Below, in pieces: positions 2,827 through 19,877 of a stretch of DNA of 64,000 nt. Under the pieces are notes generated by a model. The model had not been told where the DNA came from. It was given only the letters and a program-made list of their open reading frames with translations, and did not search any database. The stretch's first letter is position 1, and each line of letters opens with the position of its first letter. The DNA comes from Candidatus Parcubacteria bacterium (GTDB lineage: Bacteria; Patescibacteriota; Patescibacteriia; Buchananbacterales; SURF-54): positions 18,224 to 82,223 of the forward strand of contig QZIX01000002.1 of assembly GCA_003599635.1 (NCBI GenBank), written 5' to 3'. A program made the translations under genes and the position numbers.

Positions 2827-2835
2827 TGTGGATAA
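2827..2835 (+). promoter_or_regulatory. perfect DnaA-box 9-mer (TGTGGATAA = TTATCCACA) upstream of the greA promoter
   Basis: Exact 9-mer, 16 nt upstream of TTGACA (2852-2857)-17-TATTGT (2875-2880). Confidence 0.5.
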
Positions 2836-2920
2836 GTTAGAATTTAAAAACTTGACAGCAGGGATAAATAAGTTTATTGTAATAGTTACTTTTATTTTAA
2901 ACTGAAACAAAAATAAATTT

Positions 2921-3379
2921 ATGCATACCTATATTTCAGCGGAAGGCCTGAAAAAATTGAAAGATGAGCTTGATTGTCTGAAGAATGTGAAAAGAAAAGA
3001 AGTAATCGAGCGCATTGCCAAAGCCAAAGAATTGGGCGATCTTTCCGAGAATGCGGAGTATTCTGACGCTAAAGACGAGCAGGGATTTATAGAAGGAAGA
3101 ATTATGGAACTTGAAAAAATAATCAATGATGTAGTAGTGGTGAAAGAGAGTTCTAAAAATTCGGATTTTGTAAATATCGGTTCGGAGATAAAAGTCAAAA
3201 TTGACAGCGAGATAAAAAAATTCAAAATTGTCGGTTCCCGGGAAGCCAACCCGGGGGAAAATAAAATCTCCAATGAATCGCCTTTGGGGCAGGCGTTATT
3301 AGGCAGAAAAGTAGGAGAAAAAGTAAGGGTGATTATTCCCAAAGGCGAAATCGAATACCAGATTTTGGAAATAAATTAA
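2921..3379 (+). CDS. greA: transcription elongation factor GreA
   Basis: 152 aa. N-terminal coiled coil with an acidic tip (ELGDLSENAEYSDAKDEQ) and a GreA-type C-terminal domain. Confidence 0.9.
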   Translation: MHTYISAEGLKKLKDELDCLKNVKRKEVIERIAKAKELGDLSENAEYSDAKDEQGFIEGRIMELEKIINDVVVVKESSKNSDFVNIGSEIKVKIDSEIKKFKIVGSREANPGENKISNESPLGQALLGRKVGEKVRVIIPKGEIEYQILEIN

Positions 3380-3397
3380 ATAATTTTACACATTTTA

Positions 3398-3427
3398 GCT
3401 GCCCTTAATTGCATGGGCAGTTTTTTG
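3398..3427 (+). terminator. intrinsic terminator after greA
   Basis: CTGCCC-loop-GGGCAG followed by T6. Confidence 0.7.
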
Positions 3428-3474
3428 ACTTAAAGCCGTTTTTTAGTTAGAATTAACCCATTAAACAAGATTTT

Positions 3475-4926
3475 ATGGAAAAAGGAGATTTTCAGGAAAA
3501 GAAAATCAGGCAGAAAAAAGTCAATGACTTAAGGTTATTAGGGATTAACCCTTATCCGTCAACCGTTGCGGTCGGTATGTCCGTCGCAGAATCAAGAGAG
3601 CTTGGCGAAGGCGCTAAAAAAGTCAAAATTGCGGGAAGGATTGTGTCTTTCAGGCAGATGGGAAAACTTACTTTTGCCAATATTAAGGATGAGACGGCAA
3701 AAATACAAATCGCCTTTAAGGAAGACTCAATCGGCAAATCCAAATATGATTTTTTGAATTTTTTAAATGTCGGTGATTTTGTAAGCGTTACCGGAAATCT
3801 TTTTAAAACCAAAAAAGGCGAACTGACTGTTCAAGTGACGGATTTCAATCTGCTTACCAAGGCGCTTATGCCATTGCCTGAAAAATGGCACGGGCTAAAA
3901 GATCAGGAGCTGCGTTTTAGAAAAAGATATCTGGATTTACTGTCAAGCAATCAGGTGTTTGAACTGTTCAAACTGCGCAGCAAATTTATAAAGAACGTAA
4001 GAAATTTTTTTGAACAGAAAGATTTTTTAGAAGTGGAAACTCCGGTATTAGAAAATATACCCGGCGGTGCTGATGCTGAACCGTTTGTAACGCATCATAA
4101 TACGCTAGATTTCGATTTATATTTAAGAATTTCCCTGGAACTTCATCTGAAGCGTTTGCTCGTAGGGGGCTATGAGAGAATTTTCGAAATAGGAAAGGTA
4201 TTTCGTAACGAAGGCATGAGCACTCAGCACCTCCAGGAGTTTACTATGCTTGAATTTTACATAGCGTATAAGGATTACAATTTTTTAATGAAATTCGTGC
4301 CTGATTTGTACCGTTATGCCATTAAAAATACTTTCGGAAGTTTGAAAATTGACTACCAGGGAATCGAACTTGATTTCGACCAAGGATGGAAAACAATTGA
4401 CTACGTTAAGGCCATAAAGGAAAAAACCGGTGTGGATGTTGTTAAAGCCGCTGACAATGAAATCAAAGAAGCCATAAAAAAATTTAAAGTCAGAACTGAC
4501 ATTAAAGCCGGCCGGGGAAGGCTGATAGATCAGCTTTACAAAAAAATGGTGCGGCCGGAATTGGTTCAGCCTACTATTTTGATTAATCTGCCGGTTGCCG
4601 TATCGCCTTTAGCCAAGAGGCATTTTGACAAACCCGAACTGGCCGAAAGAATGGTAATTGTCGCCGCCGGAATTGAAATCGGCAACGGTTTTTCAGAACT
4701 CAACGACCCGCAGGACCAGAAAGAGCGTTTTTTGGAGCAGATGAAATTAAGGAAGGCGGGGGATAAGGAAGCGCAGATGACCGATAATGATTTTATTGAA
4801 GCTTTGGAATACGGCATGCCGCCGGCCGCCGGTTTTGGTGTTGGACTTGACCGGCTGTTTATGATTTTGGCCGGCGCGGATTCAATACGTGAGGTAGTGC
4901 TGTTTCCGACCATGAAAGATAAATAA
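3475..4926 (+). CDS. lysS: lysine--tRNA ligase (class II)
   Basis: OB-fold N-domain and class II motifs (FRNEG, GFGVGLDRL); full-length LysS-like sequence. Confidence 0.95.
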   Translation: MEKGDFQEKKIRQKKVNDLRLLGINPYPSTVAVGMSVAESRELGEGAKKVKIAGRIVSFRQMGKLTFANIKDETAKIQIAFKEDSIGKSKYDFLNFLNVGDFVSVTGNLFKTKKGELTVQVTDFNLLTKALMPLPEKWHGLKDQELRFRKRYLDLLSSNQVFELFKLRSKFIKNVRNFFEQKDFLEVETPVLENIPGGADAEPFVTHHNTLDFDLYLRISLELHLKRLLVGGYERIFEIGKVFRNEGMSTQHLQEFTMLEFYIAYKDYNFLMKFVPDLYRYAIKNTFGSLKIDYQGIELDFDQGWKTIDYVKAIKEKTGVDVVKAADNEIKEAIKKFKVRTDIKAGRGRLIDQLYKKMVRPELVQPTILINLPVAVSPLAKRHFDKPELAERMVIVAAGIEIGNGFSELNDPQDQKERFLEQMKLRKAGDKEAQMTDNDFIEALEYGMPPAAGFGVGLDRLFMILAGADSIREVVLFPTMKDK

Positions 4927-4927
4927 T

Positions 4928-5479
4928 ATGGAAAGGCAGGAAGCTTACAATATCGTTCTGGCCAATGTCAAAAATAATAACTTAGTTAAGCACATGCTGG
5001 CGGTAGAAGCGGTTATGGCCGGCCTTGCCGTAAAGCTTGACCAGAACGCAAATGACTGGCGCCTGGCGGGGCTTTTACACGATGCCGATTACGAAGAAAC
5101 GAAAAATGACATGCCCAGGCAGGGCGTAATTATTGCCGAAAAACTTTCCCAATTGGGAATAGCCGATGAAATTTGCCACGCCATAAAAGCCCACAACGAC
5201 AAGACCGGTACGGCGCGACAAAGTCTGATGGATAAAGCCATTTACGCAGCAGATCCTTTAACCGGTTTGATAGTCGCTTCAACTTTGGTTTTGCCTTCAA
5301 AAAAAATTGCCGATTTGACGGTGGAAAATATCCTTAACCGCTTTAAGGAAAAATCATTTGCCAAAGGTGCCAGACGAGATGCCATATTGTCTTGTGTTGA
5401 AATTAATTTATCTCTGGAAGAATTTGTCAGCATCGCTTTGGAAGAGATGAAAAAAATTAGCAGCAACCTTGGCTTATGA
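4928..5479 (+). CDS. HD-domain metal-dependent phosphohydrolase
   Basis: HD signature LLHDADYE with flanking His residues, 183 aa. The TGA stop overlaps the next ATG (ATGA). Confidence 0.65.
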   Translation: MERQEAYNIVLANVKNNNLVKHMLAVEAVMAGLAVKLDQNANDWRLAGLLHDADYEETKNDMPRQGVIIAEKLSQLGIADEICHAIKAHNDKTGTARQSLMDKAIYAADPLTGLIVASTLVLPSKKIADLTVENILNRFKEKSFAKGARRDAILSCVEINLSLEEFVSIALEEMKKISSNLGL

Positions 5480-5874
5480 TCAAAAAAGTAATGGTTTTCG
5501 GAACATTCGATATTTTGCACCCGGGTCATCTGAGTTTTTTCAAACAGGCGCAAAAATACGGCCAACTGACGGTTGTAGTCGCCCGGGATAAAAATGTTTT
5601 GAAAATTAAGGGTAAATTACCGCAAAACTCCGAGAACGAAAGGCTTAAAACAGTTAAAAATATATGGGGAATCACCGCTTTACTTGGCGATTTAAATGAC
5701 CCTTATAAGGTTATAAAAAAAGCCGGGCCTGGTATTATCTGCCTTGGTTACGACCAAAAAAGTTTCGTGAACGAATTAAAATTTAAATTTCCAAAAATAA
5801 AAATTATCAGGTTAAAACCATATAAGCCAGAATTATTTAAAACATCTAAACTAATTCAATATGCTCGACATTAA
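5476..5874 (+). CDS. cytidylyltransferase-fold nucleotidyltransferase (RibL/FAD synthase-like or TagD-like)
   Basis: N-terminal GTFDILHPGH matches the (H/T)xGH nucleotidyltransferase motif; 132 aa. Confidence 0.6.
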   Translation: MIKKVMVFGTFDILHPGHLSFFKQAQKYGQLTVVVARDKNVLKIKGKLPQNSENERLKTVKNIWGITALLGDLNDPYKVIKKAGPGIICLGYDQKSFVNELKFKFPKIKIIRLKPYKPELFKTSKLIQYARH

Positions 5875-7099
5875 TAAAATCAGGGAAGAAAAGGAGACGG
5901 TAAAAAAAGCCCTGCTTAAAAGAATGGATGAAAAAGATCTTGATCTGGACAGTTTAATTGAGTTGGATGATGAGAGGCGTCGGTTATTGCATAAAGCAGA
6001 AAATTTGAAAGCTGAAAGGAATAAATACTCCAAAAGCAAGCCCGATAAAGAAACTATTGCCAAACTTAAAGCAGTCGGCATAGAAATAAAAGAACTTGAT
6101 GAAAAGTTGAGAATTATCGAAGAAAGGCTTAAAGAAAAATTAAGCGCCTTGCCGAATATTACCGCTGATGATGTTTTGCCTGGGGGCAAGGAAAATAATA
6201 AAGTAATCCGAACTCTTGGCAAGAAAAGAGAATATGATTTTAAAGCTAAAGATCATGTCGAATTGGCAACTGCTTTGGATATAATCGACTATGAACGCGG
6301 AGCCAGAATGTCAGGTTCCGGGTTTTGGATTTATAAAGGCCAGGGCGCCGTTTTAGAATGGTCTTTATTGAATTATTTTATAGAATTTCACAGAAAAAAC
6401 GGCTACGACTTCATACTGCCGCCTTATCTTTTGACTGAACAATCGGCTTATACATCCGGGCATCTGCCCAAATTCCGCGATGACCTTTTTTGGACACAGG
6501 ATAAGCTTTGTTTGAACGCTACCTCAGAAATGATGCTGGGAAATTTACATCGTGATGAAATTTTAAACAAACTGCCTATGAAATATTTCGCTTACTCGGC
6601 CTGTTTTAGGCGGGAAGCGGGCAGCTATCGTAAAGAGGAGAGGGGAATGGTGCGCGGACATCAATTTAACAAAATTGAAATGTTTCATTTTACTGAACCA
6701 AAAGACAGCTGGAAGTCTTTTGATGAACTTGTAAAGAATGCCGAAAGACTTGTTGAAGGACTGGATCTGCATTTTCAATCCGTACAACTTGCGGCAGGGG
6801 ATGCTTCGGCTGCCATGGCCAAAACCATAGACATTGAAGTCTGGATACCGAGCATGGAAACGTACAAGGAAGTATCCAGCGTTTCCAATGCCCTTGATTA
6901 TCAGGCGCGGCGCGGTAATGTCAGGTATAAAAATCCAAAGGGTAAAAACGATTTCGTCCATACATTAAACGCTTCCGGCCTGGCAACCAGCCGTTTATTT
7001 CCGGCAATACTTGAGCAGCATCAGAATTCTGACGGTACGGTCAATATTCCCAAAAGCCTGCAGAAATACACCGGCTTTAAAAAAATAGAAAAAAAATAA
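5861..7099 (+). CDS. serS: serine--tRNA ligase
   Basis: N-terminal coiled-coil arm plus class II core (FRREAGS, GHQFNKIEMF, NASGLATSR). Confidence 0.95.
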   Translation: MLDINKIREEKETVKKALLKRMDEKDLDLDSLIELDDERRRLLHKAENLKAERNKYSKSKPDKETIAKLKAVGIEIKELDEKLRIIEERLKEKLSALPNITADDVLPGGKENNKVIRTLGKKREYDFKAKDHVELATALDIIDYERGARMSGSGFWIYKGQGAVLEWSLLNYFIEFHRKNGYDFILPPYLLTEQSAYTSGHLPKFRDDLFWTQDKLCLNATSEMMLGNLHRDEILNKLPMKYFAYSACFRREAGSYRKEERGMVRGHQFNKIEMFHFTEPKDSWKSFDELVKNAERLVEGLDLHFQSVQLAAGDASAAMAKTIDIEVWIPSMETYKEVSSVSNALDYQARRGNVRYKNPKGKNDFVHTLNASGLATSRLFPAILEQHQNSDGTVNIPKSLQKYTGFKKIEKK

Positions 7100-7105
7100 T
7101 TTTAT

Positions 7106-8230
7106 ATGCCAAGAAAAAAAATTAACGTCGGCGTTATTTTCGGCGGTCGTTCAGGTGAGCATGAGGTATCCATAGTTTCGGCTCAGGCAGTAATGAAGGC
7201 GTTTGATAAATCAAAATATAATGTGATTCCCGTTGGCATCACTAAACAAGGTGTCTGGCTGTCAGGAGCAGAAGCCGTAAAATTCTTGAAAAAAGGTATA
7301 AAAAAGATAGTTACTAAGACGGTTTTGGCACCGGATGCAACGGAAAGGGGGTTAATGAAGGTAAGCCGGAATAAAGTCAGTTTTAACCAGAAATTAGACG
7401 TAGTTTTTCCCGTGTTGCACGGCACTTACGGCGAGGATGGAACTGTACAAGGTTTATTCGAACTGGCCAATATACCTTATGTCGGAGCCGGTGTTTTGGG
7501 ATCTGCCGTCGGCATGGATAAAGTCATCCAGAAAGAAATTTTCAAGCAGAACAATTTACCGATAGTCAAGTATGTCTGGTTTTTAAAAAGTGACTGGCAG
7601 AAAGGCAGAGCTAATATTTTGCGACTCATAGAAAAGAAGCTGAAATATCCGGTTTTTGTCAAGCCGGTGAATTTGGGTTCTTCTGTCGGCATATCCAAGG
7701 CCAGAAATAGGGCAGAATTGGTCCCTGCCGTTAAATTAGCGGCAAAGTTTGACAGAAAAATCATCGTTGAAAAATCGGCCGGTAATATCAGGGAAATCGA
7801 GGTCGCCGTGCTTGGCAATGACCATCCTGAATCCACTGTGCCCGGAGAAATCATCCCATCGAATGAATTTTACGACTATAACGCCAAGTATATTGACGGC
7901 AAGTCACAAGCCATAATCCCGGCCAGATTGCCCAGAAGCGTAATTAAAAAAGTCAGAGAAACGGCTGTTGCGGCCTACAGGTGTCTGGATCTTTCGGGAA
8001 TGTCACGTGTCGATTTTTTCGTACTTAAAGGATCAAACAAGCTGATATTAAATGAGGTAAACACCATACCGGGATTTACTTCAATTTCAATGTATCCCAA
8101 GCTGTGGCAGGCAACAGGGCTGTCATATAAAAAGCTTTTGGATAAACTGATAAACTTTGCCATTATAAGACATAAGGAAAAAAATAAACTCAAGACATCA
8201 TTTGATTCGGGCAGCGATTGGTATAAATAA
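7106..8230 (+). CDS. ddl: D-alanine--D-alanine ligase
   Basis: ATP-grasp enzyme with LHGTYGEDGTVQG and NEVNTIPGFT motifs. Confidence 0.95.
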   Translation: MPRKKINVGVIFGGRSGEHEVSIVSAQAVMKAFDKSKYNVIPVGITKQGVWLSGAEAVKFLKKGIKKIVTKTVLAPDATERGLMKVSRNKVSFNQKLDVVFPVLHGTYGEDGTVQGLFELANIPYVGAGVLGSAVGMDKVIQKEIFKQNNLPIVKYVWFLKSDWQKGRANILRLIEKKLKYPVFVKPVNLGSSVGISKARNRAELVPAVKLAAKFDRKIIVEKSAGNIREIEVAVLGNDHPESTVPGEIIPSNEFYDYNAKYIDGKSQAIIPARLPRSVIKKVRETAVAAYRCLDLSGMSRVDFFVLKGSNKLILNEVNTIPGFTSISMYPKLWQATGLSYKKLLDKLINFAIIRHKEKNKLKTSFDSGSDWYK

Positions 8231-8244
8231 TAAATAATTTTTAC

Positions 8245-9066: not shown

Positions 9067-9166
9067 ATCTTTATATTTATTCAAACAATACAAACAATAC
9101 AAAGCAGAAATATATTTTTATGAGTTTTGAGAGTTTGTTGTTAAGGTGAAAGTTAGTAATTTGTAA

Positions 9167-9175
9167 TGTGGATAA
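9167..9175 (+). promoter_or_regulatory. perfect DnaA-box 9-mer upstream of the xer promoter
   Basis: Exact 9-mer, 6 nt upstream of TTGCGG (9182-9187)-17-TAGAAT (9205-9210). Confidence 0.5.
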
Positions 9176-9217
9176 GTGATATTGCGGTAAATTATAAATA
9201 ATTATAGAATAATTTTA

Positions 9218-9259: not shown

Positions 9260-10228
9260 ATGAATAAATCCAATACCCCTTTAATTAAGCACATACCTGA
9301 TTTTTTAGATTATTGCGACGTGGTTAAGGGTTTATCCGCAAAATCAATTGAAGATTATCACCGTTTTATAAAAAAGTTCGTCTTGTGGCTTGAACAAAAT
9401 AATCTGGGTGGGTTAAAACCCCACGATTTATCAAGCCAGCACATTTATCAGTACCGCCTGTACCTTTCCCGACACGCCAATTTTAAAAACCACGGCCAAC
9501 TAAAAAAAAGCACTCAAAATTATTATTTAATAGCTATCAGGGCTCTTTTATTGTATTTTACCGCCAAAGACATAATCTCGTTACCTGCAGATAAGGTTGT
9601 TTTGGCAAAAGAAAAAAATGTCCGCAAGGTAAACTTTTTAAACCTGTCACAGCTGCAAAAATTACTTTCCTCCCCTTCTCTTAACAACGTTAAAGGTCTT
9701 CGTGACCGCGCTATTCTTGAAAGTTTATTTAGTACCGGCATGCGCGTCGGCGAGCTGGCGGGTTTGGACCGGGATCAGATAAATTTAGATTTTCTAAAAA
9801 AAAATAAGCTTACAGAACTGGAACTCCCGGTAACCGGTAAAGGCGGTTACACCCGCACGGTTTATTTTTCACGACGGTCTTTGGATGCGATAATCAGTTA
9901 CCTGGAACTTCGAAAAGACACGGACAAGCCATTATTTATAAGTTTTTCAAGGTTTAAAAATTTGGAAAATCGTTTAACAACAAAATCGATAGAAAGACTG
10001 GTCAAAAAATATGTTCATCTGGCCGGTTTACCCTTAAATACTTCACCGCATACCTTGCGCCATTCATTTGCCACGGACCTTCTTAATCAAGGTGTTGATT
10101 TAAGAATTGTCCAGGAATTCTTAGGCCATCAAAATATCTCCACCACTCAGATATATACTCACGTTACCAGTAAAAAGCTCAAAGACATCCATCAAAAGTT
10201 TCACAGCGGCGAACGGCTTAAGGGCTAA
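9260..10228 (+). CDS. tyrosine site-specific recombinase, XerC/XerD family
   Basis: SAM-like N-domain and catalytic C-domain with RVGELAGL, HTLRHSFAT and LGHQNISTTQIYTH (R..HxxR..Y). Confidence 0.85.
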   Translation: MNKSNTPLIKHIPDFLDYCDVVKGLSAKSIEDYHRFIKKFVLWLEQNNLGGLKPHDLSSQHIYQYRLYLSRHANFKNHGQLKKSTQNYYLIAIRALLLYFTAKDIISLPADKVVLAKEKNVRKVNFLNLSQLQKLLSSPSLNNVKGLRDRAILESLFSTGMRVGELAGLDRDQINLDFLKKNKLTELELPVTGKGGYTRTVYFSRRSLDAIISYLELRKDTDKPLFISFSRFKNLENRLTTKSIERLVKKYVHLAGLPLNTSPHTLRHSFATDLLNQGVDLRIVQEFLGHQNISTTQIYTHVTSKKLKDIHQKFHSGERLKG

Positions 10229-10246
10229 AATATAAAAACGACTCGG

Positions 10247-10930
10247 TTAAAGAGGCGTTTTTGAGTTATTCGATTTAACTTTTTTGTAAAGCCAGTAGGA
10301 ATAAATTATCGGCACTAAAGCAATTATAACGATTCCGGCCATAAATATAATCCAGTAAAGCTGCTGATTAGGCAGAAATGCGCCCAAGATCAAAAACAGG
10401 CCAAGCAGCATAAACAATTTCCCTCCCAGGCGGTGCGTTTTGTTCCAAACTTCTTCCGAAGACAATGTCCAGGGCGTTCTGATGCCAAAAAACCAGTTTG
10501 ACTTTATTTTACCCATATAATTACCCATCACCATAAATAGAATTCCTATGGCCGGAGGAATTATGTAATTAATCGATAAGTCATAACCCATGCCGGCCAA
10601 CCCGACATAAAAATAAATCAGCGTCAGAACGGCGATCAAAATGTCCTTAAATATGTGATAGACTTTGGAAAATTCCACATAACGGTCTTTTTTAGGATCG
10701 ATATAAGGTATGGCCAGAAACAACAGATAAAGACCCGCATTTAATGCCGGAAAGAAAAAAGCTGCAAATGTTTTTGGTGAATAATCATCAATTTCTCCCC
10801 GATAATTCCAGTGGGTCGGTACTTGTTCAGGAAAATTTGCGTAAAAATAAAAGCTGGCAACTAAAGATGTCAATAAAAGCGCAATTGGCAGTATTTCGGT
10901 TTTAAACGATAATTTGATTGGGTTTGGCAT
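10247..10930 (-). CDS. SdpI/YhfL-family membrane protein (DUF1648 + SdpI domains)
   Basis: Contains PEQVPTHWNYRGEIDDY (DUF1648-like) and NWFFGIRTPWTLSSEEVWNKTHR (SdpI-like); polytopic. Confidence 0.8.
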   Translation of the reverse strand: MPNPIKLSFKTEILPIALLLTSLVASFYFYANFPEQVPTHWNYRGEIDDYSPKTFAAFFFPALNAGLYLLFLAIPYIDPKKDRYVEFSKVYHIFKDILIAVLTLIYFYVGLAGMGYDLSINYIIPPAIGILFMVMGNYMGKIKSNWFFGIRTPWTLSSEEVWNKTHRLGGKLFMLLGLFLILGAFLPNQQLYWIIFMAGIVIIALVPIIYSYWLYKKVKSNNSKTPL

Positions 10931-10935
10931 AGGAT

Positions 10936-11205
10936 TTAATCATTTTTTTTAAAAAAATTATAAAGGTCTTTGGAAATCTCCTCAAAAACCGACAAATTCA
11001 GCGAGTATATGATTTGCTGCCCCTTTCTTCTGGTAGTTACAAGGTTGGCATTTTTTAAAGTGTTCAGATGATGCGACAGCGAAGGCAAAGTAATGTCAAA
11101 ATTAACGGCGATTTCATTAACGGCCAAATCCTTTTTTTTAAGCAATTCCAGTATCTGGCGACGGGTTTTATCGCTTAAAGCTTGAAAAGTTAAAGATAGA
11201 GTCAT
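10936..11205 (-). CDS. ArsR/SmtB-family transcriptional regulator (SdpR-like)
   Basis: 89 aa winged HTH (ALSDKTRRQILELL...EIAVNFDITLPSLSHHLNTLKNANLV). Forms an operon with the SdpI-like gene. Confidence 0.85.
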   Translation of the reverse strand: MTLSLTFQALSDKTRRQILELLKKKDLAVNEIAVNFDITLPSLSHHLNTLKNANLVTTRRKGQQIIYSLNLSVFEEISKDLYNFFKKND

Positions 11206-11233
11206 ATTTAGATATTAAGACAACTATCTAAAT
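11206..11233. promoter_or_regulatory. perfect 9-10-9 inverted repeat, candidate ArsR-family operator
   Basis: ATTTAGATA-N10-TATCTAAAT lies between the -10 box and the arsR ATG. Confidence 0.5.
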
Positions 11234-11750: not shown

Positions 11751-12950
11751 TTATTGAAGTTTGTAAATTACCTTGACGCTTTTTCTGTAGCCGACGCGGT
11801 CCTTGGCATATTCCCCCGTCCCCCACATCTGCCCGTAAGCAATCGTATAGTCGCCGTATTTGTCGTTTATTTTGTCCATAGTCTGGGCAATATTTTTTTT
11901 GCTCAAAACGTCATTAAATAAATTCATTTGTCTGGAAAGGCCGGAAAAATTGCCGACGGAAACGGCCAGCATTCTTATTTTTTGACCGATCTTTTTGGCT
12001 AAAAAAATTTTTGCCGCCAAATTATAGATATCAATGGTGATAAACAGCTTTTCCGGAACTTTAAAAATTTTATAGAACCCGCCACTGGATACGTAAGACC
12101 AGTAAAGCGACATACTTTTGGCTTCCAGCTTCTGTTCCCGCAGGCGGCGGCCGACTTTTTCGCATAATTTCATTAATACTGACAAATGATAATTGGTATC
12201 TGTTGTGTGTTTAGGCAAGCAGTAGCTGTGGCCGATTGATTTGGGTTTTATTTCATCCTGTGTTTTTACCCCTTCAAGTTCAATGCCATTGACATTGGCC
12301 CATAAAAAATAACCGGGTTTGCCTAAAGCAGTCAGAATATTTTGCACCGGATAGTTTTTTAAATCGTTTAAATTGTAAATACCCAGACGGTTAAGGCGGT
12401 TTTCCATGCGGAAATTAATGCCCCAGGCATCGGTTAGCTTCACCCGGGAGTAAATTTTGGGCGCTTTTTTCGGCGTAATAATATTTACGGAATCCGGCTT
12501 GGCAATATCAGCGATAAATTTTGCCAGCCATCGTGTAGTGGAAATGCCGATTTTGCTTTTTAACCATTCTCCGACTTCTTTTTTTATCCTTGTTTGGATC
12601 TGCCGGCCGATTTTTTGGGCCAAAGACAGGCTTTGGCAGTAACCGGTCAGGTCCATAAACGCTTCGTCTATGCTATAGGGTTCGATTCTTTCGGTATAAT
12701 CGGCTAAAATCGAAAAAATTTTTTCCGTTGTGGACCGGTATTTGGCAGGTTCGTTTTCTATTAAAATCACATCAGAATGTATTTTTTTAGCTTCTTTGAC
12801 CCGGCAGCCGGTGGTGATGCCCAGTTTTTTAGCTTCGATTGATGAGGCGATAATGCAGCCGTTAGGCGCCAGATAAGCGCAGACGCCAACGGGTTTCCCG
12901 CGCAAAAAAGGATTAGCCTGCTGTTCAACGGAAGCGAAATATGAATTCAT
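11751..12950 (-). CDS. dinB: DNA polymerase IV (Y-family); the real start is probably upstream at a non-ATG codon
   Basis: MNSYFASVEQ...GKPVGVC... is the Y-family palm. In-frame codons upstream of the ATG read KIVLHID, completing the conserved hID(M)D strand. The upstream stop is at 12993-12995. Confidence 0.9.
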   Translation of the reverse strand: MNSYFASVEQQANPFLRGKPVGVCAYLAPNGCIIASSIEAKKLGITTGCRVKEAKKIHSDVILIENEPAKYRSTTEKIFSILADYTERIEPYSIDEAFMDLTGYCQSLSLAQKIGRQIQTRIKKEVGEWLKSKIGISTTRWLAKFIADIAKPDSVNIITPKKAPKIYSRVKLTDAWGINFRMENRLNRLGIYNLNDLKNYPVQNILTALGKPGYFLWANVNGIELEGVKTQDEIKPKSIGHSYCLPKHTTDTNYHLSVLMKLCEKVGRRLREQKLEAKSMSLYWSYVSSGGFYKIFKVPEKLFITIDIYNLAAKIFLAKKIGQKIRMLAVSVGNFSGLSRQMNLFNDVLSKKNIAQTMDKINDKYGDYTIAYGQMWGTGEYAKDRVGYRKSVKVIYKLQ

Positions 12951-13029
12951 ATCAATGTGGAGGACGATTTTTGGGCTGATAGGTTTGAAATTTATGAGTT
13001 AAAATGTTAAGGCAGCTAATAAAGCGAAA

Positions 13030-13074
13030 AGCGATACAGCGATTGAAGTTTTAAACTTTTTCGCTATAATCGCT
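13030..13074 (-). other. long imperfect hairpin between the 82-aa ORF and dinB
   Basis: On the minus strand, AGCGAT-TAT-AGCGA ... TCGCT-GT-ATCGCT, followed by a T-rich run. Confidence 0.4.
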
Positions 13075-13094
13075 ATATTAAATTTATCGCTTGA

Positions 13095-13343
13095 TTACCC
13101 TTCGCAATACATTTCTTCCAGCCGCCATTGCAGATTATTGGTGTTGAAAGACAGCTTAAAGTAAGTGGTTTTGTCGGTTACGTTAAAATAATAAATTTTG
13201 CCTTGGCCGTTTTTTTGATAATGGATCAGATTTAATTTTTCAATTTTGTATTTTTTGTTCCGGTGTTTAAAATAAAGCGGCTGGATTTTAGTCCCCTTAA
13301 AGAAAACCAAAACTTCAATCGGCTGGTTAATTTTTTCATACAT
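13095..13343 (-). CDS. hypothetical protein (82 aa) between lexA and dinB
   Basis: Clean ORF with TATAAT 8 nt upstream of the ATG. No recognisable motif. Confidence 0.4.
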   Translation of the reverse strand: MYEKINQPIEVLVFFKGTKIQPLYFKHRNKKYKIEKLNLIHYQKNGQGKIYYFNVTDKTTYFKLSFNTNNLQWRLEEMYCEG

Positions 13344-13625
13344 AACTAAATATTATATAAGGCGTTTTTTTGGATTAAAACCATTTTGTTCTTGTATACT
13401 CGTTCCTTTTTGAGCAATTTTTTATAGCTTGTTTTAAACATACAGTTAAAATAATGTTTCCATAAAAACTTTTTAATTGATTTTGGCATAGTTTTATTTT
13501 TAGTTTATTATTTAATTTAGTTATTTTCTGTCGTTTTGCCAACGACTTCCCTTTATTAATTTTAAAAATTCTAAATACTAATGTCTAAATCTCAAACAAT
13601 AGTGAGGAGCGGCGTTTTATTCATT

Positions 13626-14240
13626 TTATATAGTTTTATATTTTCTGATAACCGCCTTAACTATTCCCTGAATCAGCGGATCCTTGGCAAAAATGGGTTT
13701 CATTTGCGAATTTGCCGGCTGCAGACGGATTTTATCTTTTTCACGATAGAATTTTTTTAAAGTGGCATAGGCGTTATCAAGCAATGCCACGACCACATCG
13801 CCGTTTCTGGGGCTGGGGTTTCTTTCCACTATCACATAATCACCGTCTAATATGCCTTCATCTATCATTGATCTGCCCTTAACCTGTAAAACATAGGAAT
13901 TGGCAGCATCTGCTACCAAGTCAGCCGGTACGCCGATGGCTTCGTTATTTTCTATTGCTTCGATCGGTTCACCTGCCGCTATCAGGCCCACTAAAGGCAA
14001 ATTAAGAGCATTAGCCAGCCGCATTACTTTAGGCGTGACTTCAATTGACCTTTTTTCATTAAAACCGCCTTTTAAATAACCTTTGTCTTTTAAAGCCTGG
14101 ACATGCTGATGGACAGTCGCCGGTGAGGATAAGTTGAAATGCCGGCCGATTTCCAAATAAGAAGGTGAAATCCCCTGTTCCTTAATATAAACAGCAATAA
14201 AATCGACAATTTCTTTTTGTTTTTTGGTAGGTTTTTCCAT
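13626..14240 (-). CDS. lexA: LexA repressor
   Basis: N-terminal winged HTH. The C-terminal S24 peptidase has VKGRSMIDEGILDGDYVIV (Ser nucleophile) and ATLKKF (Lys). Confidence 0.9.
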   Translation of the reverse strand: MEKPTKKQKEIVDFIAVYIKEQGISPSYLEIGRHFNLSSPATVHQHVQALKDKGYLKGGFNEKRSIEVTPKVMRLANALNLPLVGLIAAGEPIEAIENNEAIGVPADLVADAANSYVLQVKGRSMIDEGILDGDYVIVERNPSPRNGDVVVALLDNAYATLKKFYREKDKIRLQPANSQMKPIFAKDPLIQGIVKAVIRKYKTI

Positions 14241-14246
14241 AATTTA

Positions 14247-14276
14247 ATTATATACCGAAAGAAAACCGAAAGTCAA
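14247..14276 (-). promoter_or_regulatory. lexA promoter (TTGACT-18-TATAAT), probably near-leaderless
   Basis: The -10 ends 6 nt before the ATG. The spacer holds the direct repeat CTTTCGGT...CTTTCGGT (TTCG-N7-TTCG). Confidence 0.5.
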
Positions 14277-14284
14277 TGCTTAGT

Positions 14285-14293
14285 TGTGGATAA
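14285..14293 (+). promoter_or_regulatory. perfect DnaA-box 9-mer upstream of the rrf2 promoter
   Basis: Exact 9-mer, 7 nt upstream of TTGACA (14301-14306). Confidence 0.5.
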
Positions 14294-14300
14294 ATCCGTT

Positions 14301-14329
14301 TTGACAATAAATTAATCTAGGACTAAAAT
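14301..14329 (+). promoter_or_regulatory. rrf2-hemerythrin promoter (TTGACA-17-TAAAAT)
   Basis: Consensus -35 with 17-nt spacing. Confidence 0.6.
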
Positions 14330-14339
14330 AGTCTTAGAT
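14315..14339. promoter_or_regulatory. 11-3-11 imperfect palindrome, candidate Rrf2 (or LexA) operator
   Basis: ATCTAGGACTA-AAA-TAGTCTTAGAT has 1 arm mismatch and overlaps the -10 box. Confidence 0.5.
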
Positions 14340-14359
14340 ACTTAATAATAAAATCATTT

Positions 14360-14782
14360 ATGAAACTCAATCAAAAAATAGAATATGCCCTTTTGGGTAT
14401 GATTAATCTGGCCCGAACTGATTTTATAGCCAAAAAAGTCAGTTTGATTGCCAGAGAAGAAAGATTGTCAGCCGTTTTTCTGGCCAAAGTATTCCAGGAT
14501 TTAAGCCGGGCCGGGCTTGTCATGTCTGTTTTCGGCCCGCATGGCGGCTTTTCATTGATCAAAAAACCGGAAAAAATAACCTTAAAAATGGTAATAGCCG
14601 CCATAAATAACAGTTATTTTTCCCCTTGTTACCGACAAAAAGAATTTGTCTGCACTAAAAAAAACTGCCTTCTTCGCCCCGTACTGCTGCAAGCTGATAC
14701 TGTCCTGGAAAATTTTTATGAAAATGTGACTTTAGCTCAATTAATTACTAAATCCCCTGCCTTAACCAAAGCCGGGGTTTAA
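14360..14782 (+). CDS. Rrf2-family transcriptional regulator (NsrR/IscR-like, with a Cys cluster)
   Basis: N-terminal KIEYALLGMINLAR wHTH. C-terminal Cys residues (SPCYRQKEFVCTKKNC) sit where Rrf2 proteins bind Fe-S. Confidence 0.85.
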   Translation: MKLNQKIEYALLGMINLARTDFIAKKVSLIAREERLSAVFLAKVFQDLSRAGLVMSVFGPHGGFSLIKKPEKITLKMVIAAINNSYFSPCYRQKEFVCTKKNCLLRPVLLQADTVLENFYENVTLAQLITKSPALTKAGV

Positions 14783-14791
14783 GAAAAAAAT

Positions 14792-15388
14792 ATGAAAAGC
14801 GATATTCAAAAAAACAGCCACAATTTAAAAACGAAAATTATTGATGCCACAGCCGAAATGAAAAAGTGTCATCAGGAAGTCTTAAAACATCTTGACGGCC
14901 TTCAGAATTTAAAAGAAACAATAATTAAAAAAAATTTGCCGGTTTCAGCCATTAAGAATGAATGGGATAAATTTAATGATTTTGCCAATACCAGTCTTTT
15001 GCTTCATACCAGAGACGAAGAACAGGCGCTGTTCCCGCTGCTTGAGCCGAAACTTTGCAACCACGCCTGTATCGGCACCGGCTCCATTACGCCGGTGGAA
15101 ATGATGATGACCGATCATAAAAATATTCATGCTGCAATCGAAGTAATAAATTACCTGACCAAACTTTTGGGCAAAAAGGAGGTCAGCAATGAATTGTCCT
15201 TCGTGTTAAAAAATGAAATGGCCGCAAGAATGGCAATGATAATAAAAACCATGCGCAATCATATCTGGAAAGAAGACAATGTTCTTTACCAGATTGCCCG
15301 GTCGGAATTGTCCTTTGAGGAATTGGACAAAGTCAGTCAAAAAATGGTTGTTTTTCGCAGCCAGTCTGATTTTATCTGCCTGCATTAA
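14792..15388 (+). CDS. hemerythrin-like (HHE cation-binding) domain protein
   Basis: His/Glu pattern HTRDEEQALFPLLE, MMTDHKNIHAAIE and HIWKEDNVLY. Cotranscribed with the Rrf2 gene. Confidence 0.6.
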   Translation: MKSDIQKNSHNLKTKIIDATAEMKKCHQEVLKHLDGLQNLKETIIKKNLPVSAIKNEWDKFNDFANTSLLLHTRDEEQALFPLLEPKLCNHACIGTGSITPVEMMMTDHKNIHAAIEVINYLTKLLGKKEVSNELSFVLKNEMAARMAMIIKTMRNHIWKEDNVLYQIARSELSFEELDKVSQKMVVFRSQSDFICLH

Positions 15389-15433
15389 AGAAGTTTTTAG
15401 TATGTGCTATAATTCAGACAGCAAAATAATCCT

Positions 15434-16159
15434 ATGGCGCTTAAAAAATTCGTTCCCAAAAAAGAAATTATCGGATTTTTAAACAAGATAACCCGTTATG
15501 GTCTGACCAGTGAAGTAAAAAATAATCTAAGAAAAAAGGGGTTTAGTTTTGATGCCAGAGGATGGAGCAAGGAAAAACTCCGTCAGGCTGAGCAACATCT
15601 TAAGGAAGGTGATGATCTGAAACTTGGCATGGGTGATTTGGGCCTTAAAAAAGAGGAAAATACCTACTTCAGGAAGAATCTGTCTGCCACCAGTTCAAAA
15701 CAAACATCGGTTAGTAAAGATGAAATCCTAAGACTAAGCGGAACATTTCAAGGCAGGAAAAAACTTTCAAAAATAGCAAAACAGACCTCAAGCCGAGACC
15801 TGGCCCACAATATTTTACGAATTCTTGAAAAAAAAACGCCCGCCGGGCATTTGACAGCGGAACAGCTGTGGCAACTTAATCCGGCGGAACTTGAAGAAAA
15901 ACTTTCACAGCTTGAAAACAGCTCCGGCTCAAGCAAAGATGAAATTGAAAATGTAAGAAAAATCTTAAATACCAAAAGAAACCGAATTATTGCTGAAGGA
16001 AACGTGTCGGAAAATCAAAAAACAAAAAGCGGCAGGGACGTTATTGAAGAAATACTTCACGGCGATGACAACCATAAGCCGGATGACAGACAGCAGAATA
16101 AACCGCTGCCGCCCTTATTTGACGAACGCAAACTGCCGGGAAGCGGCATGTTCGACTGA
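15434..16159 (+). CDS. hypothetical charged/low-complexity protein
   Basis: 241-aa ORF rich in Lys, Ser and Glu. No motif recognised. Confidence 0.4.
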   Translation: MALKKFVPKKEIIGFLNKITRYGLTSEVKNNLRKKGFSFDARGWSKEKLRQAEQHLKEGDDLKLGMGDLGLKKEENTYFRKNLSATSSKQTSVSKDEILRLSGTFQGRKKLSKIAKQTSSRDLAHNILRILEKKTPAGHLTAEQLWQLNPAELEEKLSQLENSSGSSKDEIENVRKILNTKRNRIIAEGNVSENQKTKSGRDVIEEILHGDDNHKPDDRQQNKPLPPLFDERKLPGSGMFD

Positions 16160-16588
16160 TTATCTGAAGTAGTATTTTTTAAGCCACCAAATTACGCCGA
16201 AGCTGAAAAAAGCCGCGAAAACGTTGTACCATGTGTACTCTGTTTCAAAAAAATAAGGCATAATCAAAATTACCAGGCCGCAGACAAATGCAGCCAGTTC
16301 ATGCCTTAAAAGATCAAAATAAGTCAGAGATACGTTAAATATATTATCCCCTGTTTGGCGGGATTTTTTTGACTGGCGCAAATTATAACTTGTGGCTTTG
16401 GCTCCGCCTAAAATGAAAACGGCAAGCGGCGCAATGTATTTGGCAAGCAGAATGCCCAAATCGTCAATGTCCTTGTAAAATTTTATGTAAGCGGCCAGAA
16501 ACAAAAAAAAGCCGAGCCATAACCCCAGAATAATGAATTCCTTTAAATTTTTGAAAATAATATTTTCTTCTTTATTCATATATGTCAA
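16160..16588 (-). CDS. hypothetical membrane protein
   Basis: 142 aa with about 4 hydrophobic segments. Downstream of the M23 peptidase gene on the same strand. Confidence 0.4.
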   Translation of the reverse strand: MTYMNKEENIIFKNLKEFIILGLWLGFFLFLAAYIKFYKDIDDLGILLAKYIAPLAVFILGGAKATSYNLRQSKKSRQTGDNIFNVSLTYFDLLRHELAAFVCGLVILIMPYFFETEYTWYNVFAAFFSFGVIWWLKKYYFR

Positions 16589-16594
16589 TTATAT

Positions 16595-17833
16595 TTATGG
16601 CAGATATTCCAAGGGATTGACCGGTATGCCGTTTGATCGGACCTCGAAGTGAAGATGAGGGCCGGAAGTCAATTTTCCCGCCCCGGGGGTTTTGGGTTTG
16701 CCGCCGCTCAATGCAATTATGTCGCCCTTGTTAACGTATTGGTCTTCCTTAACCAAAATTTTGGAAACATGTCCGTAAACAGTGGAAAAACCGTCATTAT
16801 GAATTATCATGATATAACTGTAACCCATGCCTGCATCCTTGGCGCGGGCCACATATCCGCTTTCGGCGGCTTTTACCGAAGTCCCCTGCGAAGCGCGGAT
16901 GTCAATTGCCGGGTGTTCGAAAATGTAGCGATAGGGATAATCGGGATCATGGAAATATGCAGTGACGTATTTGCTGGGCACCGGCCAGATGAATTTTGCC
17001 GGCCCGAATCCCTTGAATTTTTCCTGGGCTTCTCTTTTTTCCAGTTCGTCACGAATTTTTCTTTCCAGCGTGGTTATTTCGGCGTTTATCTGCTGTTCTT
17101 CCAGTTTCAATTTGTATACCAGGTCCTTAAATTGAATTTCCGATTGTTTTGACTGTACAAGGAGCTCGCCTTTGACGAACCGTTTTTCGTCCAAATTGTC
17201 CCGGTGTTCTTTCAGCTCGTCAATCAATTTTTCATTATCCGTTTTTTTTGCTTCCATTTCGGATTTGTCAGCCTGCAGGGTTGCTTTTAAGTCAGTGACT
17301 TTTTGCAGAGTATTTTTTACATCATTCTGCATCTGGTAAAGGTATTCCACCTGATCGAAAAATTCAGAAAATGATCTTTTCTGCAGCAATACCTCAAGGT
17401 AACTTTTTTTATCGTTGATGTTGATAGTTCTTATATATTCGGCCAAATATTTTTTTTGATTTTGTATATTCTTTTCCGTTTTTACGATTTCAGATTCCAA
17501 TTTGCTGATTTCCAGGTTTAATTTTTCAATTTCAAGACTTGTCCTTTCTATATCAAGTTCATTTTTTTTGATTTCATTTTCAAGTATTGCCAGTTGATTT
17601 TTTAAACTTAAGCTTTCCGATTGCTTTTGTTTGATTTGCTTATTGTATTGGTCGATTTTTTCCTTAATAGAATCGATGGCCTTTTTTTTAAGGTCTATAT
17701 CTTCGTTGTATTCATCAACTGAATCGGCTCCGAAAACCGGGGTTGTCCCGGCGATAAAAAAAACAGCCATAAATACGGCTGCAGTCAAAAAAACCGCAAA
17801 AAATATTTTTTTGTTTTTGTTTATAACCGCCAT
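16595..17833 (-). CDS. M23-family peptidoglycan DD-metalloendopeptidase with a long coiled coil (EnvC-like architecture)
   Basis: Signal/TM segment, about 250 aa of coiled coil, then an M23 core (HPAIDIRASQGT...GHVSKILV...GPHLHFEV). Confidence 0.85.
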   Translation of the reverse strand: MAVINKNKKIFFAVFLTAAVFMAVFFIAGTTPVFGADSVDEYNEDIDLKKKAIDSIKEKIDQYNKQIKQKQSESLSLKNQLAILENEIKKNELDIERTSLEIEKLNLEISKLESEIVKTEKNIQNQKKYLAEYIRTININDKKSYLEVLLQKRSFSEFFDQVEYLYQMQNDVKNTLQKVTDLKATLQADKSEMEAKKTDNEKLIDELKEHRDNLDEKRFVKGELLVQSKQSEIQFKDLVYKLKLEEQQINAEITTLERKIRDELEKREAQEKFKGFGPAKFIWPVPSKYVTAYFHDPDYPYRYIFEHPAIDIRASQGTSVKAAESGYVARAKDAGMGYSYIMIIHNDGFSTVYGHVSKILVKEDQYVNKGDIIALSGGKPKTPGAGKLTSGPHLHFEVRSNGIPVNPLEYLP

Positions 17834-17890
17834 TAACTTAATTATAACATAAGTTTACGGCAATTTCCATCGGATTGTCCTCTGCTAAAT

Positions 17891-19876
17891 TTAGTAACAG
17901 CCGACCCAGCGATCATTTCTTGCTTCTACTGCCGCCACGTCCCAGCCGTCGTTTAAGGTTTCCTGGTCATAAGTGGTAAGCCACAGGTTGGCATGGTATT
18001 CATTCGGCACAATCCAGCCGGAATTATACAGATCCGTCAGTTTTTTGCCGTACATATCGCCGCCGGTTGCGTAATATTTGTCCGTAATATCCACTCCGTC
18101 CCTTCTGAAATACCATCTTTCAGCCGTATTGCTTACTTTGTCAATATGTATTTCCCAGCAATACCATTTGTCGGCTAATGTGTCGACGCCGGCAGAAAAA
18201 ATATCGTCGACCAAAACGCCGTAGCCGGAAGGATGGTCGCTGCCAAAACCCAGCGACATAGTGTAATCCATCTGGTTTACCGATGTCAGCCCGAAGCTTT
18301 TGAATTCAGATGTCATCGGCGCATGAAAACGCAGATAATGTTTTGTATTTTTATTGGTGTCGATGCCTGAAAACCAGTGAGTATTGGAATGAAGATTTCC
18401 CGGCTGTACCCAGTCTTTACTGGCGCGGACATATGCCCTGATGTAAAGGTCGTCCGGGTCCCTGAAAATGTCGGGAATGTCAGATGAGCCGTTGATTTTA
18501 AGTTCCATTGTCCTGCCGTCGCCGTCAAGCCCCCCATTGCCTACGGTAACCATTTTTAAGTAATTGTTATTGCCGGGCGCTCCCGGCATAACTGCGGGAT
18601 ACTGCAATGAATTGTTGTAAAACACTTTCCAGGTCTGTTTGTCGGTGCAGTCATCGCCGTAATAGCTTTCCTCGTATTGCGACCCCAGGCCCTGGCAATA
18701 ACCGGTTTTGGTGTTCCAGCTGGAAAAGAAAAGGCAGCCGGGATCGCCTGAACAGTTCGTTTCCGGACTGCTGCACGTTTGCTGTTCCGAAGGTTTCGGA
18801 AGAACGGGACAGTAATAGGTTGAAGGGTCAGGGTCCAGGCAGGTTCTGGTCTGAATACCATTGATGCAGCTTCCCCAATCTGAACACTGCCATGATTCGG
18901 TGCAGGAAAAACAAGATGACGAACTAAGACAGTCTGAATCAGAGCAGTCTGTTTTTCCGTCGCAGTCGTTGTCATAGTTGTCCGAGCAGTTTTCAGCAAC
19001 ACAAGCCGGCTTACCGGGTTTTACAATCACAAAATACATGATATTGCCCACACAGCCGTCGCCGCAGGCGCCCAAAGAAACTTTTCCCGGCAGATAATTC
19101 TTAACGTAAATCAGGCTTTTCGATCCGGCGCTGGTAGTTAAGCTTAAACCCGTGGGGGTAAAATTTTGCGTCAGCCATAAAGGTTTTTTGCCCCAGCCCC
19201 AGGAATCTTCCCAGCCGATTACATAAACTGTTGCCGGTTCGGAAATTTCAAAACTTACGCTTAGCGATGAATTGGCTTTGTCATCCATTTTCGTCCTTAA
19301 AAGCGTTTGCCCTGAAAGTTCGGAAGAAAGCGATCTAATGGTGATAGTTCTGTCAATATACGGCTGAGATCCGGCATTGGCAATTCCGCTTTTGTATGTT
19401 GAGGGTGAAATATCCGTTAAAGTCAGGCCGGACGCCGAAAAAAAGCAGTCAGTGTCATTTTCATCGGTCCCGCCGTCGCAGTCGTTGTCAAAACCGTCCG
19501 CGCAGATTTCCGAACCCGCGCAGCAAAAATTGTCATTGCAGCCGAATTGGCAGTCGGTGCTGACCGAACGGGCATAGGTCAGACCGCCGACACCGGAGCA
19601 GTAATATTCTTTTAATGACACCGGATCCAGACAGGCGTCAGGATAACTGATGCGTCCGTTGATTAAAATTTCACCCGGTTTTTGAAAATTTATGCCACCG
19701 TCAGAATCCAGGCAGGTTTTTACTTTGGTTATGGTCGCTTTTTTGGTAGTTCTCAGCCGGGCATCAGCCGTAAAAGTAGTCACAACGCCGACAGCAATGC
19801 TTAAAGCAGCTAATGCTGCCAGAAAAGCGATCAGAGTGAATAAAACTGATTGTTTTTGTTTTATGAAGTTATCCAC
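17891..19876 (-). CDS. large Cys-rich secreted/surface protein
   Basis: N-terminal TM. Modules: CLDSDGG...LKEYYC; two DNDCDG metal-binding-type motifs (CADGFDNDCDGGTDENDTDC, CSDNYDNDCDGKTDCSDSDC); a lectin-like middle; and a C-terminal beta-rich domain. The annotated start is GTG. Confidence 0.6.
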   Translation of the reverse strand: MDNFIKQKQSVLFTLIAFLAALAALSIAVGVVTTFTADARLRTTKKATITKVKTCLDSDGGINFQKPGEILINGRISYPDACLDPVSLKEYYCSGVGGLTYARSVSTDCQFGCNDNFCCAGSEICADGFDNDCDGGTDENDTDCFFSASGLTLTDISPSTYKSGIANAGSQPYIDRTITIRSLSSELSGQTLLRTKMDDKANSSLSVSFEISEPATVYVIGWEDSWGWGKKPLWLTQNFTPTGLSLTTSAGSKSLIYVKNYLPGKVSLGACGDGCVGNIMYFVIVKPGKPACVAENCSDNYDNDCDGKTDCSDSDCLSSSSCFSCTESWQCSDWGSCINGIQTRTCLDPDPSTYYCPVLPKPSEQQTCSSPETNCSGDPGCLFFSSWNTKTGYCQGLGSQYEESYYGDDCTDKQTWKVFYNNSLQYPAVMPGAPGNNNYLKMVTVGNGGLDGDGRTMELKINGSSDIPDIFRDPDDLYIRAYVRASKDWVQPGNLHSNTHWFSGIDTNKNTKHYLRFHAPMTSEFKSFGLTSVNQMDYTMSLGFGSDHPSGYGVLVDDIFSAGVDTLADKWYCWEIHIDKVSNTAERWYFRRDGVDITDKYYATGGDMYGKKLTDLYNSGWIVPNEYHANLWLTTYDQETLNDGWDVAAVEARNDRWVGCY

Positions 19877-19877
19877 A
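19869..19877 (-). promoter_or_regulatory. perfect DnaA-box 9-mer overlapping the GTG start of the Cys-rich protein gene
   Basis: On the minus strand, TGTGGATAA contains the annotated GTG (19876..19874) and the TAA stop of a 29-codon upstream ORF. Confidence 0.4.

Follow-up and report, generated by a model that had tools for sequence, protein, structure and literature searches.

A DnaA-box 9-mer conserved at lexA, greA and arsR-sdpI promoters in Patescibacteria, and a putative small regulon tied to DNA replication

In several bacteria the replication initiator DnaA also serves as a transcription factor and controls a compact set of genes linked to the state of replication and the cell cycle, as described for sda, ywlC, yydA and trmE in Bacillus subtilis and for gcrA, ftsZ and podJ in Caulobacter (PMC8203912). 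In Escherichia coli the consensus DnaA box TTATCCACA lies just upstream of the sigma-70 promoter of nrdAB, a replication-linked target that DnaA both activates and represses, according to its level and its nucleotide state (PMC8203912), while at uvrB, recN and dinJ a DnaA box and a LexA operator are found in one promoter region (Wurihan et al. 2018, PMC6015884). The boxes R1 and R4 of the origin oriC hold DnaA for most of the cell cycle and act as starting points of oligomers; there a single box suffices for stable DnaA occupancy and directional oligomer growth (PMC4285127). Here we analyze a stretch of 64,000 nucleotides from a Candidatus Parcubacteria bacterium (contig QZIX01000002.1, referred to throughout as the window), in which TGTGGATAA, the reverse complement of TTATCCACA and with it the DnaA-box consensus (relaxed form TTWTNCACA), occurs in front of a small set of genes. 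From comparative sequence evidence we consider it rather likely that these 9-mers are functional cis-regulatory sites, namely single high-affinity DnaA boxes controlling adjacent sigma-70-type promoters, and we attach similar confidence to the gene set they would mark in one Patescibacteria clade: the lexA-dinB SOS cluster, greA, the gene of a Xer-type recombinase and an arsR-sdpI pair.

Like E. coli nrdAB, the genes in question carry the consensus box just upstream of a predicted promoter, but nrdA has the double box TTATCCACAaagTTATGCACT (PMC11317965), whereas the boxes of the window are single, belong to other targets and face an RNA polymerase whose alpha subunit lacks the C-terminal domain (alpha-CTD). 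The E. coli SOS cases likewise combine box and operator; theirs, however, overlap LexA boxes or the start site in effector genes, whereas here the box stands at the promoter of lexA itself, 8–10 nt upstream of the −35 hexamer without touching the operator, and its conservation extends over a radiation of phylum level. The 9-mer is identical to R1 and R4, yet, unlike at oriC, clustering, an AT-rich unwinding element and a neighbouring dnaA or dnaN are all missing from the window. The sites of the B. subtilis DnaA regulon are clusters of several boxes, in contrast to the one perfect box per promoter seen here. Patescibacteria represent a large share of bacterial diversity, are almost wholly uncultured, and little is known of their gene regulation; a sharply conserved cis-element provides a concrete hypothesis about it that is testable by cloning. 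Our literature search, which left out the dedicated Patescibacteria SOS study (Sanchez-Osuna 2017), returned no DnaA boxes in the Candidate Phyla Radiation (CPR) or Patescibacteria, nor any at lexA or greA promoters. From the closest known cases the present one differs in the single perfect box per promoter, in a gene membership (lexA itself, greA, xer and arsR-sdpI) that the searched literature does not describe, and in the setting of a polymerase without alpha-CTD.

Occurrence of the 9-mer and its conservation at orthologous promoters

An exact search of the window for TGTGGATAA recovered the same five copies that the original prediction had listed (boxes 1–5, Table 1), spaced 2–6 kb apart and, as it had also stated, with none past 20 kb. 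Boxes 1 and 2 lie in the gene orders PBP2 to greA and ddl, ftsQ-like gene to Xer-type recombinase gene; boxes 3–5 lie at arsR-sdpI, between lexA/small open reading frame (ORF)/dinB and the divergent rrf2-hemerythrin pair, and at a gene for a Cys-rich secreted protein. Four of the five copies fall within the intergenic 7.8% of the window (about 4.7–5.0 kb in 44 regions, by a crude gene call), and the fifth begins 1 nt ahead of the GTG start codon of ORF 17891..19876(−), a placement that is again as predicted. The earlier expectation of fewer than one chance copy is borne out by dinucleotide-preserving shuffles, which averaged 0.49 copies and never exceeded 2, with 0 of 100 reaching five. An unbiased count shows TGTGGATAA to be the only non-A/T-rich 9-mer present in at least 4 of the 44 intergenic regions, bar a terminator-tail word. 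The count of one-mismatch variants that had been suggested as a check was run on the window and gave 15 additional sites against about 16 expected; neither one- nor two-mismatch variants are enriched across the window or in its intergenic DNA, the sole intergenic one-mismatch site being TGTGTATAA at 21927. Many 9-mers recur in any 64 kb, and five occurrences might be chance, noticed since the word is famous. The shuffles, the four copies in about 8% of the sequence and exact conservation at orthologous promoters in many independent genomes leave this explanation barely credible: boxes 1–4 are not chance. It bears on box 5 only, as about 0.45 copies are expected in coding DNA and one coding match is within expectation.

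For comparison we used loci from relatives and metagenomes (numbered L001–L131, some numbers being paired as one lineage). By its DinB, GreA, RpoA and SdpI homologues the window belongs to Patescibacteria, and the nearest relatives carry the labels Falkowbacteria, Buchananbacteria or "Patescibacteria group". Conservation is broadest at lexA. Among loci gathered via DinB homologues, L001, L006, L009 and L018 carry the 9-mer beside the lexA promoter, and a metagenome scan with a LexA alignment gave 80 loci, 612 kb in total. These 612 kb of lexA-centred sequence contain 14 exact 9-mers, 12 of which sit 73–440 nt upstream of lexA, and an exact box accompanies 10 of the 15 closest LexA relatives. 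The box is found in exact form at the lexA promoter, at the same offset of 8–10 nt before the −35, in at least 11 lineages; the arrangement on the lexA side is kept in L001, L006, L009, L018, L040, L041, L042, L047, L048 and L049, while L045 and L046 have TTATCCCCA at the box position. The main architecture reads TTATCCACA, 8–10 variable bases, a −35 (TTGACN), a LexA operator in the spacer and a −10. In the lexA alignment (A3) TTATCC(A/C)CA is invariant and the most conserved block, and the linker of 8–10 nt varies. The gene order lexA/small ORF/dinB is shared with L001, L004 and L007.

Box 4 had been assigned to rrf2-hemerythrin in the original prediction. This did not hold: its conserved partner is lexA, which runs in the opposite orientation, because the closest relative, L001, is devoid of the rrf2-hemerythrin pair and yet keeps the box beside lexA. 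In the genome of the window, rrf2-hemerythrin probably belongs to the gene set as well.

The LexA operators of the clade are direct repeats located in the promoter spacer, TTTCGG-N5-TTTCGG in the window and GTTCGG-N5-GTTCGG in relatives (L001, L035–L049), and resemble the alphaproteobacterial GTTC-N7-GTTC type. In L009 and L018, which are Saccharibacteria-like loci, the operator is a GAAC-N4-GTTC palindrome. The LexA proteins of these two loci are only about 33% identical and use this other operator type, yet the same box stands at the same offset. The specificity of the putative binder is, on this comparison, older and more stable than that of LexA, as expected for DnaA, because the same box occurs under both operator types. 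We also considered that the box might itself be a LexA operator, which we reject as the 9-mer is unlike either operator type and constant under both, and that the boxes might be part of a general SOS composite, which we reject as well since among the boxed promoters a LexA operator occurs at lexA only.

At greA, an exact box is present upstream of the gene in five of six lineages (the window, L115, L116/117, L118/119 and L120). In each relative locus of 9–20 kb the copy in the PBP2-greA spacer is the sole exact match, with GreA proteins 58–72% identical. The distance from box to TTGACA is 16 nt in L115, 17 nt in L116/117 and in L118/119, and 5 nt in L120; the flanks have diverged, and the long invariant blocks of the greA alignment (A2) are the box and the −35 alone. 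The promoter architecture of the window recurs in L115, L116 and L120. No box precedes greA of L121/122, where synteny differs.

The remaining two sites are less uniformly kept. The Xer gene neighbourhood is syntenic with L116 and L127, and the box position is occupied in four of five lineages with 0–2 mismatches, 6–7 nt before the −35 (Table 1); the site is absent from the xer upstream region of L121. At arsR-sdpI, three of five lineages have an exact box, namely the window, L125/126, where it stands 6 nt ahead of the −35, and L130/131, where that distance is 4 nt. In L123 the site is a reversed ATATCCACA located 19 nt upstream, and no box is found upstream of arsR in L127–129. Between the −10 and the arsR start codon (about 11207–11231, − strand) there is an inverted repeat, TTAGATAgttgtcTAAATATCTAA, which is kept in every arsR-sdpI locus examined (L123–L131); presumably it is the ArsR autorepressor operator.

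Inspection of orthologous upstream regions, proposed earlier as a check, thus gives exact boxes at greA, lexA and arsR-sdpI and degenerate ones at the xer-like gene, and the sites behave as the small regulon that had been suggested. Spacer DNA around the boxes has diverged, but the boxes themselves persist at orthologous promoters. As read from these alignments, a single asymmetric 9-mer, standing at fixed promoter offsets in a small syntenic gene set, is under strong purifying selection, and it probably marks a small conserved circuit that would tie greA, xer, arsR-sdpI and lexA to DNA replication.

Table 1. Boxes, predicted promoters and associated genes in the window, with the sites at the xer position of related loci
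Feature	Position	Strand	Details
Box 1, TGTGGATAA	2827..2835	+	6 nt after PBP2 stop codon; 16 nt before greA −35
greA promoter (predicted), TTGACA-17-TATTGT	2852..2880	+	10/12 promoter matches
greA, transcript cleavage factor	2921..3379	+	Pfam GreA_GreB_N, GreA_GreB
Box 2, TGTGGATAA	9167..9175	+	6 nt before TTGCGG-17-TAGAAT, upstream of xer-like gene; −35 read by eye
Xer-type tyrosine recombinase gene, after ddl and ftsQ-like gene	9260..10228	+	Pfam Phage_integrase, SAM-like N-terminal domains
xer site of L001/L116, TGTGGACAA			6 nt to TTGACT
xer site of L007, CGTGGATAG			7 nt to TTTACA
xer site of L127–129, TGTGGATAT			7 nt to TTGACA
arsR-family repressor gene (10936–11205) and sdpI-family membrane protein gene (10247–10930)	10247..11205	−	Pfam HTH_5; SdpI with DUF1648
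Box 3, TGTGGATAA	11267..11275	−	Upstream of arsR-sdpI; 7 nt before TTGATT-16-TAATAT (by eye)
SOS cluster: lexA (13626–14240), small ORF (13095–13343), dinB (11751–12950)	11751..14240	−	Pfam LexA_DNA_bind, Peptidase_S24; IMS, IMS_C
lexA promoter (predicted), TTGACT-18-TATAAT	14247..14276	−	11/12 promoter matches
LexA operator TTTCGGTTTTCTTTCGG in lexA promoter spacer	14255–14271	−	Sole such operator in the 64-kb window
Box 4	14285..14293	+	Between two divergent −35 elements: TTATCCACA 8 nt to lexA TTGACT; TGTGGATAA 7 nt to rrf2 TTGACA
rrf2 promoter (predicted), TTGACA-17-TAAAAT	14301..14329	+	Followed by rrf2 (14360–14782) and hemerythrin gene (14792–15388)
Box 5, TGTGGATAA	19869..19877	−	Overlaps GTG start codon of Cys-rich secreted protein gene (17891–19876); downstream of any promoter for that gene
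rpoA, 249 aa, alpha N-terminal domain only	49611..50360	−	Pfam PF01000, PF01193

Promoter geometry and an alpha subunit without C-terminal domain

Across 36 distinct exact sites the information content is about zero on both flanks of the 9 bp, no extended motif and no partner element at a fixed distance emerges, and in alignments A2 and A3 it is the 9-mer that forms the invariant block. The original prediction had noted a shared continuation beyond the box: three sites of the window do run on as ...AAGT, but this flank is not kept in relatives. The selected unit, as these alignments delimit it, is an asymmetric 9-mer, as expected of a site for one DnaA domain IV; with no information outside it, a protein that binds as a monomer, DnaA for example, would fit, and a helix-turn-helix dimer would not.

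Taking all sites with a good adjacent predicted promoter, the distances to the −35 fall into few classes. Read as TGTGGATAA, the box stops 4–7 nt short of the −35 at arsR, xer, rrf2 and greA of L120 and 16–17 nt short of it at greA of three lineages, these two classes differing by about one helical turn; read as TTATCCACA, it stops 8–10 nt short of the −35 of lexA. A promoter scan from 2.5 to 20.5 kb ranks two predictions highest, the divergent lexA and rrf2 promoters around box 4. Two geometric statements of the original prediction stand in part only. Its orientation of every box with the downstream gene applies to greA, xer and arsR but not to box 4, whose conserved partner lexA runs the opposite way, and its distance of 6–7 nt to the −35 is good for box 4 relative to rrf2 TTGACA and weaker for boxes 2 and 3, where the hexamers were picked by eye and score below threshold or ambiguously in the promoter scan. 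For box 3 the scan offers GTTACA, directly adjoining the box, as an alternative −35.

As the original prediction had it, RpoA lacks the alpha-CTD: only N-terminal Pfam domains are found in the window's protein, whose gene is followed after 4 nt from the stop codon by the start of rplQ, and all of the 120 best RpoA homologues (233–310 aa, from Buchananbacteria, Falkowbacteria and other Patescibacteria) are without PF03118. Loss of the alpha-CTD appears clade-wide; the literature we searched holds no link between such loss and the CPR. A classical class I activator site or an UP element was considered and rejected, because both need the alpha-CTD. Selection nonetheless acts on upstream regulatory sites, about −45 to −57, so that another contact surface must serve.

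The position of the boxes directly upstream of −35 hexamers would also be expected if the 9-mer were a core promoter element, either one that the polymerase itself recognizes upstream or a piece of a promoter for an alternative sigma factor, and its ...GGATAA sequence loosely resembles the sigma-28 −10 element, GCCGATAA. Such an element would hardly occur in one orientation to the gene at lexA and in the opposite one at greA, xer and arsR, in only about 4 of about 40 intergenic regions of the window, and also downstream of promoters; moreover, there is no partner element at a fixed distance, and an UP element needs the absent alpha-CTD. We regard this explanation as very improbable.

DnaA and other candidate binders

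We infer DnaA as the binder from sequence, on four grounds: the site has the very sequence of the consensus box and of R1 and R4, which bind DnaA with high affinity in oriC; the borders of conservation coincide with the 9 bp exactly; site specificity was stable while that of LexA changed; and DnaA is known to regulate the transcription of repair and replication genes, in some cases jointly with LexA. DnaA boxes are active in DNA-repair and SOS promoters and upstream of −35 elements (PMC6015884; PMC8203912). A DnaA monomer would occupy each box through its domain IV and, from about −45 or −57, would modulate RNA polymerase, with contact made via sigma region 4, beta or the alpha N-terminal domain because the polymerase has no alpha-CTD. 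A contact of DnaA with RNA polymerase's beta subunit has been reported (PMC8203912), and therefore the alpha-CTD is not required. Alternatively, ATP-DnaA oligomers nucleated at the box would spread over the promoter. Precedents exist for both signs of regulation, in the dual control of E. coli nrdAB (PMC8203912) and in the DnaA-LexA co-repression of uvrB, recN and dinJ (PMC6015884). Transcription of repair, anti-backtracking and dimer-resolution genes would in this way be coupled to initiator level and replication status. In its most specific form, the proposal would have DnaA directly gating lexA (with dinB), GreA, Xer and ArsR/SdpI via single perfect boxes on one helical face closely upstream of the −35, through an alpha-CTD-independent contact and in a large clade; we put this forward tentatively. 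If true, DnaA would tie to the state of replication the SOS repressor, GreA (relevant to conflicts between replication and transcription), Xer (which resolves dimers) and a membrane-stress module, a minimal replication-coupled circuit and the first non-SOS regulon defined for these uncultured bacteria.

A number of observations weigh against binding by DnaA or against promoter control through it. A tblastn search of the window and loci L001–L114 with an approximate DnaA query gave no dnaA match, and a search of the window and compared loci for clusters of at least three near-boxes within 400 bp returned nothing origin-like. Relative to the promoter, the box is turned one way at lexA and the other way at the remaining genes, all promoters are predictions, and box 5 is without comparative support, as no orthologue of the Cys-rich gene was found in the compared loci. 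The natural variants TTATCCCCA, TTGTCCACA and ATATCCACA are presumably not the substitutions that E. coli DnaA tolerates best, going by the Schaper-Messer consensus. A double box is not apparent either, since for a second box 2–3 bp away the mismatch distribution of the best neighbouring 9-mer is near background. E. coli DnaA in vivo prefers box pairs 2–3 bp apart (15 of 16 bound sites), and only 13 of 32 consensus boxes there lie within DnaA-bound regions (PMC11317965); the paired-box requirement is a behaviour of E. coli and not part of the definition of the box.

Several of these points would also fit a real regulon whose binder is another monomeric factor, possibly CPR-specific, with a site that coincides with the DnaA-box consensus: conservation shows selection on the 9-mer and names no protein, the boxes are single, unlike the double boxes bound in E. 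coli in vivo, and neither dnaA nor a box cluster turned up among the window and compared loci. Such a factor would be a new monomeric regulator sharing the site of DnaA. We consider it unlikely, for all nine of nine bases match the canonical DnaA box and conservation ends at its borders, which is an improbable coincidence, and a specificity that is constant across the change in LexA operator suits a universally conserved protein. Patescibacteria genomes, moreover, are generally small and have few regulators.

DnaA might also bind without controlling the adjacent promoters, the boxes serving as a titration reservoir or as roadblocks to upstream read-through, for instance from mreBCD-pbp2 into greA. 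Box 1 lies immediately behind PBP2 with no intrinsic terminator between PBP2 and greA, five boxes in 17 kb are a locally high density, and DnaA boxes can be selected for titration (PMC12371093). At the asnC terminator of E. coli, RNA polymerase is halted by a DnaA/box complex (Schaefer and Messer, as summarized in PMC11317965). Similar to that roadblock, box 5 and the boxes of L004, L007, L039 and L047 stand downstream of the promoter, within leaders or at start codons, and share an orientation that puts TGTGGATAA on the coding strand; under the reading we prefer, too, these would serve as roadblocks or repressors. They are a minority, however, and the conserved sites here lie upstream of promoters, unlike at asnC. 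Titration needs no fixed offset to the −35 (8–10 or 4–7/16–17 nt) kept gene by gene, the loci of relatives carry just the one orthologous box each, and several lexA boxes directly follow a good intrinsic terminator (L009, L018, L048 and L049), so that a roadblock is unneeded there. Nor does the region look origin-proximal: GC skew is about +0.12 at 1–8 kb and about −0.12 at 48–60 kb, with a switch near 36–44 kb, and gene orientation converges, which suggests that the window spans a replication terminus. Taken over all sites, a titration or roadblock role is thus still less likely than another binder, and DnaA acting at the adjacent promoters is the reading we prefer.

Two known types of DnaA-binding locus were rejected. 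That the boxes do not form an oriC cluster had been recognized in the original prediction, and it agrees with single boxes kilobases apart, the absence of a cluster and of dnaA from the window, and the terminus-like skew. A datA/DARS-type locus, with 3–5 boxes in compact arrangement and fixed spacing and in some cases an IHF site, does not match single boxes.

Further boxes and the gene setting of the window

Exact boxes were also seen at other genes of compared loci, namely upstream of an ftsA-like gene in L027 (4574; Berkelbacteria) and, in L047, 10 nt before the dinB start codon (10721) and upstream of a tRNA-like sequence (13330). From these additional boxes, the regulon may be wider and lineage-variable. 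In the window, the gene of the Cys-rich surface protein at box 5 is possibly part of the gene set.

The Xer-type recombinase gene (9260–10228) sits inside the terminus-like window. The start codons of greA, xer, arsR and rrf2 have no obvious Shine-Dalgarno sequence in front of them, and searches for tRNA genes and Rfam families gave zero matches in the 64-kb window, the surroundings of the boxes included. Further along, the window encodes a citrate synthase (39739–40995, +) and an ATP-dependent phosphoenolpyruvate carboxykinase (46747–48249, −), both unusual for Patescibacteria, which generally have no tricarboxylic acid cycle. Near its end, a coupling ATPase of the TrwB/TraG type that includes a treble-clef zinc finger (60190–61956, −) adjoins an unannotated ORF of 456 aa, and a HARE-HTH protein (with an RNA polymerase delta-like or Rok-like domain) is encoded nearby (63362–63853, −); these may be remnants of a conjugation or DNA-uptake machinery.

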